Made by a program: the position numbers and the translations under genes
Notes under the pieces: generated by a model
Databases searched by the model: none
What the model was told of the DNA's origin: nothing
Seen by the model: the letters and a program-made list of their open reading frames with translations, nothing else
Part shown: piece by piece, positions 1-4,573 of the stretch
How the letters are laid out: the number at the start of each line of letters is the position of its first letter
How positions within the stretch are numbered: the stretch's first letter is position 1
Virus record (IMG/VR): IMGVR_UViG_2700989367_000011
DNA from: a virus
Lineage: Duplodnaviria > Heunggongvirae > Uroviricota > Caudoviricetes
Strand: one strand, 5' to 3'
DNA: 4,573 nucleotides

Positions 1-413
1 GCCTGTCATGGGCTGTTAATCATTACCGTGATAACGCCATTACCTACAAAGAGCAGCGCGACAAAAACGCAAGAGAACTGAAGCTGGCGAACGCAACCAT
101 TACTGACATGCAGCAGAGACAGCGTGATGTTAATGCACTCGATGCTAAATACACGAAGGAGTTAGCTGATGCGAAAGCTGAAAATGAAACTCTGCGCGCT
201 GATGTTGCCGCTGGTCGTCGTCGGTTGCACATCAAAGCAGTCTGTCAGTCAGTGCGTGAAGCCACCACCGCCTCCGGCGTGGATAATGCAACCAGCCCCC
301 GACTGGCAGACACCGCTGAACGGGATTATTTCACCCTCAGAGAGCGGCTGATGACGATGCAGATGCAACTGGAAGGGGCACAGGAGTATATCCGCACTCA
401 GTGCATTAAGTAG
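1..413 (+). CDS. Rz: Rz i-spanin (inner-membrane spanin subunit), 5'-partial; codon phase starts at nt 3, stop TAG 411-413
   Basis: The frame is open from the window edge. Its translation ([136 protein letters not shown]) is near-collinear with phage lambda Rz as I recall it. The ATG at 108 is internal, not the start. Confidence 0.92.
169..351 (+). CDS. Rz1: Rz1 o-spanin (outer-membrane lipoprotein), embedded in the +1 frame of Rz
   Basis: 60-aa [63 protein letters not shown] with a signal peptide, a lipobox (VVGC, Cys at about residue 20) and a proline-rich mature part. AGGAG at 157-161 sits 7 nt upstream of ATG 169. The gene lies wholly inside Rz, the classic lambda Rz/Rz1 arrangement. Confidence 0.88.
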
Positions 414-951: not shown

Positions 952-1344
952 GTTTTTACGCCCATCAAAGGTGTTGAGCCACCAGAGTGGTTCGCTGAAG
1001 AAGATCTCCCTCTCGCCACGATCATGTGGCAACTGACAACCAAAGAACTCTGCGGTCAGGGCCTGCTGTGCGTGACTGACCTGGCGGTACTTGAGCGGTG
1101 GTGCGTGGCCTATGAGTTCTGGCGACGTGCCGTGAAAAATATTGCCATACAGGGCAACACCATCACCGGTGCAATGGGCGGCAGGGTCAAAAATCCGGAG
1201 CTGACCGCCAAAAAAGAACAGGAGTCCGAGATGAGCAGCACGGGGGCAATGCTCGGACTCGACCCCAGCAGCCGCCAGCGTCTGATTGGCCTGGCGGGGC
1301 AGAAGAAAGCCACTAACCCGTTTCTGAAAATTATCGAATCATGA
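952..1344 (+). CDS. Terminase small subunit (P27 family), 5' end lost in the N gap
   Basis: The reading frame is open from the gap to TGA 1342-1344. The translation ([130 protein letters not shown]) fits the P27-family pattern as I recall it (PEW..E, GLL..D...L..YC.AY..W, LGL.P.SR.RL). The stop overlaps the terL start in ATGA. Confidence 0.85.
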
Positions 1345-3074
1345 GCCGGAAATCTTACCCCAACGTAAATGCTGCAAATCAGTATGCCCGGGATGTCGTG
1401 CGCGGAAAGATTGTTGCCTGCCAGTTTGTGATTCAGGCCTGCCAGCGCCATCTTGATGACCTGATGGCGGAAAAAAGTAAGTCGTTTCGTTACCGCTTCG
1501 ACAAGGACCTGGCTGAACGGGCCGCGAAATTTATTCAGCTGTTGCCGCACACCAAGGGGGAGTGGGCATTCAAACGGATGCCCATCACGCTGGAGCCGTG
1601 GCAGCTATTTGTGATCTGCTGTGCGTTTGGCTGGGTCAATAAAGGCACCCGGTTGCGCCGCTTCCGGGAGGTGTACACCGAAATCCCCCGTAAGAACGGC
1701 AAATCAGCAATCTCTGCCGGTGTTGCCCTGTATTGTTTTGCCTGTGATAACGAGTTTGGCGCGGAAGTGTATTCCGGTGCCACGACAGAGAAACAGGCGT
1801 GGGAAGTCTTTCGCCCGGCGCGACTGATGTGTAAACGCACACCCATGCTGACGGAAGCGTTCGGGATTGAGGTTAACGCCTCAAACATGAACCGTCCGGA
1901 GGATGGCGCGCGGTTTGAACCGCTGATCGGCAACCCAGGTGATGGTTCATCACCCCACTGTGCCGTGGTTGATGAATATCACGAGCATGCCACCGATGCG
2001 CTTTATACCACAATGCTTACCGGGATGGGGGCGCGACGTCAGCCACTGATGTGGGCCATCACCACCGCCGGGTACAACATTGAGGGGCCGTGCTACGACA
2101 AGCGGCGGGAAGTCATCGAGATGCTCAACGGCTCGGTGCCTAACGATGAACTGTTCGGGATCATCTATACCGTTGATGAAGGTGACGACTGGACCGGCCC
2201 GCAGGTGCTGGAAAAAGCCAATCCAAATATTGGCGTGTCGGTTTATCGCGAATTTTTGTTAAGTCAGCAGCAGCGTGCGAAAAATAACGCCCGTCTGGCA
2301 AACGTCTTTAAAACAAAACACCTCAATATCTGGGTGTCGGCGCGTTCGGCGTATTTCAACTTGGTGAGCTGGCAGAGCTGCGAGGATAAATCACTGACCC
2401 TTGAGCAGTTCGAGGGGCAGCCGTGCATTCTGGCCTTTGACCTGGCGCGTAAGCTGGATATGAACAGCATGGCGCGACTTTATACCCGCGAGATTGACGG
2501 TAAAACGCATTACTACAGTGTGGCCCCGCGTTTCTGGGTACCGTATGACACGGTGTACAGCGTCGAGAAAAATGAAGATCGACGGACAGCCGAACGCTTT
2601 CAGAAATGGGTGGAAATGGGCGTTCTGACCGTTACCGATGGTGCGGAGGTGGATTATCGCTACATCCTCGAGGAGGCCAAAGCGGCGAACAAAATCAGCC
2701 CGGTCAGTGAGTCACCCATCGACCCCTTCGGGGCGACCGGGTTGTCACATGACCTTGCTGATGAAGACCTGAATCCCGTCACTATCGTCCAGAACTTCAC
2801 CAATATGTCCGATCCGATGAAAGAGCTGGAAGCAGCGATTGAATCGGGACGTTTTCATCATGACGGCAATCCCATCATGACCTGGTGTATCGGCAACGTG
2901 GTCGGCAAAAACATGCCGGGTAACGATGATGTGGTGAAACCCGTCAAAGAGCAGGCGGAAAACAAAATCGATGGTGCAGTTGCGCTGATTATGGCGGTTG
3001 GCAGAGCCATGCTGTACGAGAAAGAAGACACGCTGTCTGACCACATTGAGTCCTACGGGATCCGCTCGCTTTAA
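1341..3074 (+). CDS. terL: Terminase large subunit (HK97 / Terminase_1 type), ATPase plus nuclease
   Basis: 577-aa ORF with a Walker A-like motif IPRKNGKS and a Walker B-like motif [11 protein letters not shown] in the N-terminal ATPase half, and acidic residues in the C-terminal half ([22 protein letters not shown]) consistent with the nuclease domain. Its size and position between terS and portal fit. The ATG at 1341 overlaps the terS stop. Confidence 0.95.
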
Positions 3075-3085
3075 CTGAGGTAATT

Positions 3086-3268
3086 ATGATCATGCTGATT
3101 CTCGCGCCTCTGGTGGGCGTGCTGGGTGCGCTTTTGCTGGCGTATGGTGCCTGGCTGATTTATCCCCCGGCGGGTTTTGTTGTTGCCGGGGCGCTGTGCC
3201 TGTTCTGGTCGTGGCTGGTGGCGCGATATCTCGACCGTACACGGCAGTCTGTCGGCGGAGGTAAATAG
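3086..3268 (+). CDS. Small hypothetical membrane protein (60 aa, two predicted transmembrane helices)
   Basis: GAGG (3077-3080) lies 5 nt upstream of ATG 3086. The translation [60 protein letters not shown] has two hydrophobic stretches separated by a YPPAG turn and a basic C-terminal tail. Its TAG stop (3266-3268) overlaps the portal GTG start. I do not recognise the family. Confidence 0.5.
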
Positions 3269-4424
3269 TGTTCTTTTCGGGATTATTTCAACGAAAAAGC
3301 GATGTGCCGGTGACCACGCCAGCAGAACTGCTGATGCTATCGGGCTGTCATACGACACCTATACCGGAAAGCGGATCAGTAGCCAGCGGGCCATGCGCCT
3401 GACGGCGGTCTATTCTTGCGTCAGGGTGCTGGCAGAGTCTGTTGGTATGCTGCCCTGCAGTCTCTACAAAATCAGCGGTACCCTGAAAACACGGGCGGTG
3501 GATGAACGACTGCATAAGTTGGTTTCGGCAAAACCTAATGGCTACATGACACCGCAGGAATTCTGGGAGCTGGTTATTGTCTGCCTGTGTCTACGGGGGA
3601 ATTTTTACGCCTACAAGGTAAAGGCACTGGGAGAAGTGGTGGAGCTTCTTCCGATAGATCCGGGCTGTGTGGAACCGAAGCTGAACAGCCAGTGGCAGCC
3701 GGTTTATCAGGTGACGTTTCCGGATGGTTCCGTGGATGTGTTGACCCAGAATGAAATCTGGCATGTGCGCACCCTGACGCTGGATGGACTTGTCGGGCTG
3801 AATCCCATTGCGTATGCGCGTGAGGCCATTTCACTGGCAGCGGCAACCGAGGAGCACGGTGCCAGGTTGTTTAGTAATGGTGCGGTGACATCCGGTGTGT
3901 TGCGTACGGAACAAAAGCTCACGCCGGATGCTTACGAGCGTCTGAAGAAAGATTTTGAGGAGTGTCACACGGGGCTTGGCAATGCTCACCGCCCGATGAT
4001 TCTGGAAATGGGGCTGGACTGGAAGTCGATGGCGCTGAACGCCGAGGACAGTCAGTTCCTGGAAACCCGCAAGTTTCAGCTGGAAGAAATCTGTCGTCTG
4101 TTCCGGGTGCCGTTGCACATGGTGCAGAACACCGATCGCGCCACCTTCAACAATATCGAAGAGCTGGGGCTGGGATTTATCAACTATTCACTGGTGCCGT
4201 ATCTGACCCGCATCGAACAGCGGATCAACACCGGACTGGTACGAAAAAGTAAGCAGGGCGTTTATTACGCCAAATTTAACGCCGGGGCGTTACTGCGCGG
4301 GGATATGAAGTCCCGTTTTGAAGCCTACGCCACCGGGATCAACTGGGGAATTTACTCTTCCAATGACTGCCGCGACCTGGAAGATATGAATCCGCGTCCC
4401 GGTGGTGTAATGCCGATCAGTTAA
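3268..4424 (+). CDS. Phage portal protein (HK97 family), apparently disrupted: N-terminus in a different frame from the body, and the 3' end runs into the IS4 terminal repeat
   Basis: GGAGG (3257-3261) lies 6 nt upstream of GTG 3268, and that frame gives a portal-like N-terminus MFFSGLFQRKSDVPVTTPAELLMLSG before stopping at 3400-3402. The portal body (…ISSQRAMRLTAVYSCVRVLAESVGMLPCSLY… to …GINWGIYSSNDCRDLEDMNPRPGG) is in the frame shifted by one and has no ATG/GTG/TTG start before ATG 3393. The final codons VMPIS and the stop (4407-4424) are read from the IS4 end. The ORF-track start at TTG 3177 is not supported. Confidence 0.8.
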
Positions 4425-4425
4425 G
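4408..4425 (+). repeat. Putative IS4 terminal inverted repeat (left)
   Basis: TAATGCCGATCAGTTAAG is immediately followed by a second GATCAGTT copy (the octamer repeats at 4415-4422 and 4426-4433). The other inverted-repeat copy and the target duplication are outside the window, so this cannot be confirmed here. Confidence 0.5.
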
Positions 4426-4457
4426 GATCAGTTGACCGATCCAGTGGCTGTGTAAGA

Positions 4458-4491
4458 ATCCGGAAACGCTCACTTGTTTCCGGATTTTTTT
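4458..4491 (+). terminator. Intrinsic-terminator-like hairpin (10-bp perfect stem, 8-nt loop, T7 run) inside the IS4 end, ending directly at the transposase ATG
   Basis: ATCCGGAAAC (4458-4467) pairs perfectly with GTTTCCGGAT (4476-4485), with loop GCTCACTT, followed by a run of T through 4491. The only Shine-Dalgarno-like element for ATG 4492 (GGA 4482-4484) lies in the 3' arm of the stem. Confidence 0.5.
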
Positions 4492-4573
4492 ATGCACATT
4501 GGACAGGCTCTTGATCTGGTATCCCGTTACGATTCTCTGCGTAACCCACTGACTTCTCTGGGGGATTACCTCG
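4492..4573 (+). CDS. insG: IS4 transposase, N-terminal 27 codons (3'-partial; runs off the window)
   Basis: The translation MHIGQALDLVSRYDSLRNPLTSLGDYL matches the N-terminus of the E. coli IS4 transposase InsG as I remember it. The frame is open to the window end. Confidence 0.8.
   Translation, partial: MHIGQALDLVSRYDSLRNPLTSLGDYL

Follow-up and report, generated by a model that had tools for sequence, protein, structure and literature searches.

ymfR, a gene for a predicted two-helix membrane protein between terL and the portal gene of HK97-like prophages

ymfR and its described relatives

A small gene between the large terminase subunit gene (terL) and the HK97-type portal gene has been recorded under several names in the late operon of HK97-like phages of the P27/ST64B/SfI type. 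It is ymfR (b1150) in the cryptic prophage e14 of Escherichia coli K-12, where its neighbours are aaaE, a remnant of the terminase gene, and beeE, a remnant of the portal gene; it is L37 in phiP27 and Sb3 in ST64B, and the same protein is encoded by SfI and SfII. We analysed a stretch of 4,573 bases (IMG/VR record IMGVR_UViG_2700989367_000011, hereafter the window) with which the late region of an HK97-like prophage begins and which carries, in the same place, an open reading frame (ORF) of the same length, 60 codons. Nothing material distinguishes this ORF from the described genes, and its identification as ymfR, a member of the family PHROG 502, is very well supported. An earlier note on this DNA had described the ORF as uncharacterised; the gene is in fact named in RefSeq and classified in PHROG 502, but the description holds in that no function is recorded for any member. 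In the window, ymfR is an ordinary, named and very common prophage gene in a decayed prophage, and its interest lies not in this locus but in the linkage of the whole family to the portal gene and in its frequent non-annotation or mislabelling as lambda W.

When 5,426 complete E. coli genomes were searched by megablast with positions 2950-3500, about 1,600 proved to carry this stretch. In RefSeq, the E. coli gene bears the label 'ymfR: protein YmfR' and is flanked by genes labelled 'terminase large subunit' and 'phage portal protein'; the K-12 label is 'IPR020297 domain-containing protein YmfR', and the phage records of phiP27, SfI and SfII have 'putative integral membrane protein'. YmfR of the window matched PHROG 502 ('membrane protein') with an E-value of 2.8e-28 over residues 1-55, was 95-100% identical to the peptides of related loci and clusters, and contains the family motif G-x2-G...G-A-W...P-A-G...G (alignments A2 and A3). 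A single-sequence search recovered 166 YmfR clusters and a profile built from diverse members 844, all labelled 'hypothetical', 'prophage' or 'membrane' protein, and an exhaustive phmmer search over 1.8 billion representatives returned 173 YmfR representatives at the 50% identity level. The family comprises widespread phage proteins of about 60 amino acids (aa) that are predicted to form a two-helix transmembrane hairpin.

Pfam holds no family for YmfR, with only weak compositional matches to other two-helix membrane domains, NCBIfam gave nothing meaningful, and no match was obtained in PADLOC or in a sequence profile search of the PDB. Foldseek comparison of an AlphaFold2 model with viral and PDB libraries yielded no match with an E-value under 1, which is unsurprising for a bare hairpin. 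In the literature, ymfR appears in gene lists and e14 deletions only, apart from one mention of its co-induction with other e14 genes and one of its use as a neutral integration site in K-12, where its deletion had no host phenotype (PMC9145139).

The gene W of lambda resembles ymfR in being small and in having the same map position, between A (terL) and B (portal). The lambda gpW protein is a soluble head-tail joining protein of 68 aa without a membrane helix. YmfR was rejected as a gpW because it is a hydrophobic hairpin and has no match to the gpW family of Pfam. A YmfR homologue is labelled 'head-tail joining protein W' in the records ON470584, ON470603, ON470580 and PQ793804; judging from the sequences, this label is a positional mis-annotation transferred from lambda. 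Annotation pipelines should therefore call ymfR and drop the name.

Coding status and linkage to the portal gene

The genomic context of ymfR was examined in 113 fetched loci and in nine distant metagenomic or genomic members. ymfR was intact in 112 of the 113 loci, the exception, from a Shigella flexneri genome, being a decayed second copy. The ratio of nonsynonymous to synonymous substitution rates (dN/dS) ranged from 0.1 to 0.45 against increasingly distant homologues, with synonymous sites near saturation, and column entropy was highest at the third codon position (0.66, 0.48 and 1.09 for positions 1, 2 and 3). ymfR is a genuine protein-coding gene under purifying selection, and the conservation in place and sequence that the earlier note had proposed to look for was found. 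Two antisense ORFs (3071-3358 and 3090-3242) were discarded, as the pattern of variation matches the plus-strand frame.

The translation signals that had been read from the window alone were recovered (Table 1). The GAGG ribosome-binding site is preceded by the terL stop, 11 nucleotides (nt) separate terL from ymfR, and the site is kept as GAGG across the enterobacterial loci. The ymfR stop codon TAG shares its G with the GTG start of the portal gene at 3268 (TAGTG), and the portal annotation of E. coli A36 and phiP27 begins at the same GTG. The Shine-Dalgarno sequence of the portal gene lies within the last codons of ymfR, and this site is purine-rich in all loci (GGAGG, GGGGG or GAGG). These features agree with the arrangement for translational coupling proposed in the earlier note. 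The RNA of the ymfR-portal junction was predicted to fold no more stably than shuffled sequences (z = -0.39), which gives no indication of a structure hiding the portal ribosome-binding site, and an Rfam scan of 2900-3500 gave no match. A programmed frameshift fusing YmfR to the portal protein was also considered and rejected, since a stop codon interrupts the portal frame two codons ahead of the portal start and no conserved slippery sequence was found.

In every examined context, ymfR was located between terL and an HK97-type portal gene. The order terL, ymfR, portal was found in all 30 genome loci drawn from one-genome-per-species contigs, which belong to Escherichia, Shigella, Edwardsiella, Mangrovibacter, Scandinavium, Erwinia, Lonsdalea, Serratia, Citrobacter, Salinicola, Halomonas, Vreelandella, Chromohalobacter and Modicisalibacter. 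It holds in Serratia, with a terL 35% and a portal 78% identical to those of the window, and in Halomonadaceae, with portals 39% identical (54% for terL in Halomonas); YmfR itself is 46-66% identical in these loci. In Halomonadaceae, the ATG of ymfR overlaps the 3' end of terL by 7 nt. Wherever the nearest portal start could be scored, it overlapped the ymfR stop by 1 nt (TAGTG, TAATG or TGATG), the only exceptions being the six contigs that carry the portal frameshift of the window (L034-L039). The nine distant members were likewise all found between a TerL gene and a portal gene of the PF04860 family or, on short contigs, directly upstream of the portal gene. In some distant loci, an S49 head protease takes the place of the S78 protease. 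One distant metagenomic locus (L121) has an extra 113-aa ORF (3663-4004 of that locus) between terL and the hairpin gene, and the product of the latter reaches 106 aa with a charged N-terminal extension.

Comparison of phages that share one side of the junction shows which neighbour the hairpin follows. In phiP27, terL is 77% identical to that of the window, and YmfR and the portal are both 98% identical; in Serratia, too, the portal (78%) is much closer to that of the window than terL (35%). SfV, in contrast, keeps a terL 98% identical to that of the window, but its portal is only 28% identical and its hairpin is of another subtype, PHROG 7105. At mosaic joints, the hairpin thus travels with the portal side.

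PHROG 7105 is a remotely related sister group of PHROG 502 (hhalign probability of 89% against the YmfR profile; E-value of 5.7e-6 against PHROG 502). Its members in SfV and in Ralstonia phage YO028_2 resemble YmfR in being a two-helix hairpin with a basic end that starts on the terL stop and ends at the portal start, and differ from it by the absence of W23 and of the PPAG turn, by a longer loop and by a different portal lineage. The SfV member, a 53-aa ORF detected by an ORF scan (locus L114, 2289-2450), is not annotated, and the annotated portal start of SfV (2392) falls inside it, probably about 50 nt too far upstream. Hairpin ORFs at the same junction were also found in PY54 (63 aa; L124, 2301-2492; profile E-value of 1.5e-26), in Burkholderia phage vB_RY5 (L134, 1188-1373; 1.5e-12) and in Vibrio phage K272. 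In Mycobacterium phage Wanda, the hairpin at the junction (gp11) gave a weak match, and the 53-aa two-helix ORF of Bacillus phage phi4I1 (L132, 1203-1364) is an analogue by architecture only. The junction ORF is without annotation in SfV, SfIV, PY54, Burkholderia vB_RY5 and Bacillus phi4I1.

The N-terminus of portals encoded behind a hairpin ORF tends to read M-F-(F/L/I), for example MFFSGLF, MFFSRQL, VSFFSRIF and MIFDRLF, and that of portals encoded directly after terL reads MGIL... or is polar, a difference that may reflect phylogeny only. A distinctive N-terminus of hairpin-linked portals was not retained, as an amphipathic N-terminal helix is common to every portal of this type.

The constancy of this junction could also be explained if the peptide had no function, the ORF being a spacer whose translation hands ribosomes over from terL to the portal gene and sets a low dosage of portal. 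The stop/start overlap and the internal portal Shine-Dalgarno sequence are indeed the most constant features of the locus. HK97 and Pseudomonas phage D14E couple terL to portal directly, with the same 1-nt overlap. However, ymfR is under purifying selection that has kept G11, G14, G21, W23 and G35 while synonymous sites became saturated, and a spacer would need neither a conserved membrane hairpin nor tandem duplications of it that arise and persist. We therefore consider a functionless spacer highly improbable.

The earlier note had proposed that ymfR is an inserted accessory gene (a moron). In a consensus scan of 2700-3600, no sigma-70-like promoter and no plus-strand terminator were detected, the GC content of the ORF (0.58) is like that of its flanks (0.51-0.59 in terL and portal), and both position and overlap are conserved from Escherichia to Halomonas. 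The moron reading is thus not supported. As to its distribution, ymfR was present in all close relatives fetched, these loci having been found by searching with YmfR, and absent from the more distant D14E and HK97, which have the same module.

The same observations bear on a related explanation, in which YmfR is a late, host-directed membrane peptide and its adjacency to the portal gene is historical. The hairpin would bind or perturb a conserved component of the host inner membrane, or the bilayer, and might block DNA entry of superinfecting or re-adsorbing phages or modulate the membrane late in infection. YmfR is small, very hydrophobic and conserved mainly in its membrane-embedded helices, its gene is dispensable in several related phages, as accessory genes are, and the PHROGs category is 'moron, auxiliary metabolic gene and host takeover'. 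Many small membrane proteins act by binding larger membrane proteins. HK97 gp15 and T4 Imm, which act in exclusion, are likewise small phage-encoded proteins of the inner membrane, and the gp15 gene lies among structural genes. These exclusion proteins are expressed from the prophage or early, from signals of their own, and occur sporadically, whereas ymfR has no detectable promoter and a fixed position, and no sequence similarity to them was found. As no promoter of its own was found, no expression of ymfR is expected from a repressed prophage. In the contexts examined, ymfR never occurred outside the terL-portal junction, which is unusual for a host-directed accessory gene, and fast evolution and a scattered occurrence are usual for exclusion genes, whereas the helix core of YmfR is kept across bacterial orders. 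The lack of a PADLOC match also counts against this explanation, as does the K-12 deletion without host phenotype (PMC9145139), although the latter is uninformative for a cryptic prophage. A host-directed role is in our opinion rather unlikely; if true, YmfR would stand out by its conservation among late exclusion or membrane-modulating peptides.

Predicted topology and possible function

The two hydrophobic helices around a YPPAG turn that the earlier note had described, and the hairpin topology that it derived from them, were also predicted here. Hydropathy analysis gave hydrophobic segments at residues ~2-25 and ~30-46, each with a Wimley-White octanol free energy of about -9 kcal/mol, and a grand average of hydropathy of 1.16 for the whole peptide. 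In the AlphaFold2 model, helices span residues 2-25 and 27-57, with a mean predicted local distance difference test (pLDDT) score of 72. The best-kept positions across the wide family are G11, G14, G21 and W23 within helix 1 and G35 in helix 2, the last being invariant, together with the P-A-G turn and an arginine or lysine past helix 2. In alignment A2, Y26 and G30 are invariant and P27, P28 and A29 are at least 90% conserved. The conserved small residues are predicted to line helix faces that would allow close packing.

The tail of the window peptide, called basic in the earlier note, has four basic residues and one acidic residue, but a basic tail is limited to close relatives: across the family, conservation is restricted to the juxtamembrane arginine or lysine at position 47, and many members end in an acidic C-terminus. 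An invariant GG in the tail of enterobacterial members coincides with the portal Shine-Dalgarno sequence; as its codons overlap this signal, the conservation of GG need not reflect the function of the peptide. Both ends of YmfR are predicted to be cytoplasmic because the N-terminus is basic or uncharged, the loop has five residues and a basic residue borders the membrane after helix 2.

Alternatively, helix 1 could be a cleaved signal peptide leaving a mature single-pass peptide of 39 aa, processed like the M13 procoat after insertion of the hairpin. This variant concerns topology and is compatible with the other functions considered here. Position 19 is always a small residue (A, S, T, C or G) and position 21 a glycine, a pattern that may resemble the -3/-1 rule of signal peptidase I. 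Unlike signal peptides, helix 1 is strongly conserved, with four of the family's five best-kept positions lying in it; moreover, a basic N-region is missing in most members and the loop is only about five residues long. Tandem duplications of the whole hairpin were found in P0141, P0150, P0168 and P0179, which encode proteins of ~100-120 aa with four predicted helices and in which the 'signal peptide' would become internal. The duplicated members fit an uncleaved unit with both ends inside that pairs with itself, and cleavage of helix 1 appears improbable. In P0168, the stop codon is still overlapped by one base by the next gene.

The predicted anatomy also recalls class II holins and pinholins such as S68 of phage 21, which are about 60-70 aa long and span the membrane with two helices, their termini both lying inside and their C-terminal tail being charged. 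YmfR could accordingly be a pinholin- or antiholin-like lysis-timing factor that would accumulate with the structural proteins and tune membrane depolarisation, its probable late expression and a mimic of a dual start (Met1 and Met3 in the window) adding to the resemblance. However, no holin family was found among Pfam matches even at E-values up to 10, and Met1 and Met3 are not conserved as a pair, relatives beginning with MIL, MFL or MLT. ymfR adjoins no endolysin gene and lies outside the lysis cassette, which is already complete upstream with holin, M15 endolysin and Rz/Rz1 (locus L001; Rz at 108-413 of the window), and its constant neighbour is portal, not an endolysin. A role in lysis timing is thus very improbable.

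We tentatively propose that YmfR is a non-essential membrane helper tied to the synthesis or assembly of the portal, in the form of a late-expressed, self-associating hairpin of the inner membrane. YmfR would be made only late, from the structural-gene transcript and at levels similar to those of TerL and portal, and would insert in the inner membrane so that its two ends face the cytoplasm and the YPPAG loop the periplasm, where it might self-associate via the small-residue helix faces formed by G11, G14, G21, G30 and G35. After finishing ymfR, ribosomes would reinitiate at the start codon of portal, at a distance of one base, so that the portal protein would be made beside the membrane-bound hairpin, which could then localise or nucleate the assembly of portal and procapsid, or of the packaging motor, at the membrane. 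Late-only expression, the topology and self-association are what we infer here; expression from the late operon is supported by the lack of a detected promoter or terminator, a GC content like that of the flanks and the reported co-induction with e14 genes. We favour a portal helper because the linkage to portal is exclusive and deep in a group of viruses whose accessory genes otherwise move freely. Among the functions listed in the earlier note (superinfection exclusion, a membrane-acting toxin or modulator, packaging or lysis timing), this strict linkage favours the packaging or head-assembly end. If true, a link of portal assembly or DNA packaging to the membrane would add an extra step to the HK97 assembly pathway.

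Several points weigh against this proposal. In HK97, as in the canonical HK97-type module described in the earlier note, terL is joined directly to the portal gene, with a 1-nt overlap and no such ORF. Pseudomonas phage D14E has the same module of HNH, terS, terL, portal, protease and capsid genes and a portal 61% identical, and a six-frame scan of its whole genome revealed no ymfR homologue. A direct joint without ymfR was also found in pAN, Psymv2, Mcat31, KPP5665-2, Shpa and a Streptococcus phage. ymfR is therefore widespread but not universal, and it is dispensable in evolution. Moreover, the stop/start overlap alone could keep ymfR beside portal, and YmfR has no conserved soluble domain able to bind the portal protein, as its tail is short and variable and the GG is partly explained by the Shine-Dalgarno sequence. 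The confidence of the AlphaFold2 model is moderate, topology and oligomerisation being predictions, and no functional study of ymfR, Sb3 or small portal-adjacent membrane proteins was found in the literature. No need of a membrane is known for HK97-type proheads.

A loose parallel to the proposed portal helper is T4 gp40 and the membrane-associated initiation of the prohead on the portal gp20, a functional analogy only, with no homology. In T4, genes 40 and 20 are not neighbours, and head assembly on the membrane is not known for HK97-type phages. A wider form of the proposal, which we regard as doubtful, is that the portal-coupled membrane hairpin would be a widespread and largely overlooked head-packaging component of HK97-type phages, tethering portal synthesis and the start of the procapsid or packaging motor to the membrane in phages of Gamma- and Betaproteobacteria, and possibly of Actinobacteria and Bacillota, where analogous junction ORFs occur. 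If this were true, the heads of many HK97-like phages would, like those of T4, start to assemble at the membrane.

The prophage in the window

The coordinates of the features are given in Table 1. The stretch 728-950 consists of 223 masked bases (N), so that the end of the HNH endonuclease gene and the start of the small terminase gene cannot be read there. Downstream of ymfR, the portal gene is frameshifted 21 codons past its start by a deletion scored relative to E. coli A36, phiP27 and ST64B, and similarity to other portals stops where an IS4 element is inserted about 380 codons into the gene. The deletion is common to six IMG/VR contigs, five of which are identical to the window and the sixth nearly so. 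Because the same lesion is found in all six, the portal frameshift is a true allele of this lineage and not a one-off sequencing error. With its portal gene both frameshifted and truncated by IS4, the prophage of the window is defective, like e14, and ymfR is an intact passenger in it; as the portal frame is broken, the coupling target of ymfR in the window is a pseudogene.

Table 1. Features of the window. Positions are those of the window; empty cells, not given.
Feature	Position	Strand	Remarks
Rz spanin gene	108-413		Pfam Phage_lysis, E-value 2.4e-45
Rz1-like ORF	169-351		inside Rz, +1 frame; apparent lipoprotein with lipobox
HNH endonuclease gene	start 456		runs into masked bases
P27-family small terminase subunit frame	ends 1344		emerges from masked stretch
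terL	1341..3074	+	577 aa; Pfam TerL_ATPase and TerL_nuclease; stop 3072-3074
ymfR Shine-Dalgarno, GAGG	3077..3080	+	5 nt before ATG, 2 nt past terL stop
ymfR coding sequence	3086..3268	+	ATG 3086, TAG 3266-3268; 60 aa
Predicted transmembrane helix 1, residues 2-25	3089..3160	+	hydropathy, AlphaFold2, alignments A2 and A3
YPPAG turn, residues 26-30, predicted periplasmic	3161..3175	+	hydropathy dip
Predicted transmembrane helix 2, residues 31-46	3176..3223	+	CLxWSW motif; hydropathy, AlphaFold2, alignments A2 and A3
Predicted cytoplasmic tail, residues 47-60	3224..3265	+	R/K47 conserved, remainder variable
Portal Shine-Dalgarno, GGAGG	3257..3261	+	within ymfR codons 58-59
Portal 5' fragment	3268..3402	+	GTG start, 44 codons; premature stop from frameshift
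1-nt deletion, CTGGC to CTGC	3329..3330	+	alignment A1, column 281
Portal body	3331..4407	+	out of frame with its own start; Pfam Phage_portal PF04860, E-value 3.3e-107
IS4 left end, TAATGCCGATCAG...	4408..4573	+	inserted into portal gene

Some records with near-identical copies of this stretch have unexpected hosts. A 'Bacillota bacterium' metagenome-assembled genome (L005) and Edwardsiella hoshinae (L007) carry a YmfR 97% and a terL 99% identical to those of this enterobacterial prophage, and a record of 'Enterococcus phage Efm 3-10' (H43/H51) has 97% DNA identity to the same stretch, which suggests contamination or misassignment in all three. Five of the six contigs that share the portal deletion (L034-L038) end between positions 4424 and 4573 of the window or beyond, within the IS4 copy, as would be expected for a repeated element.

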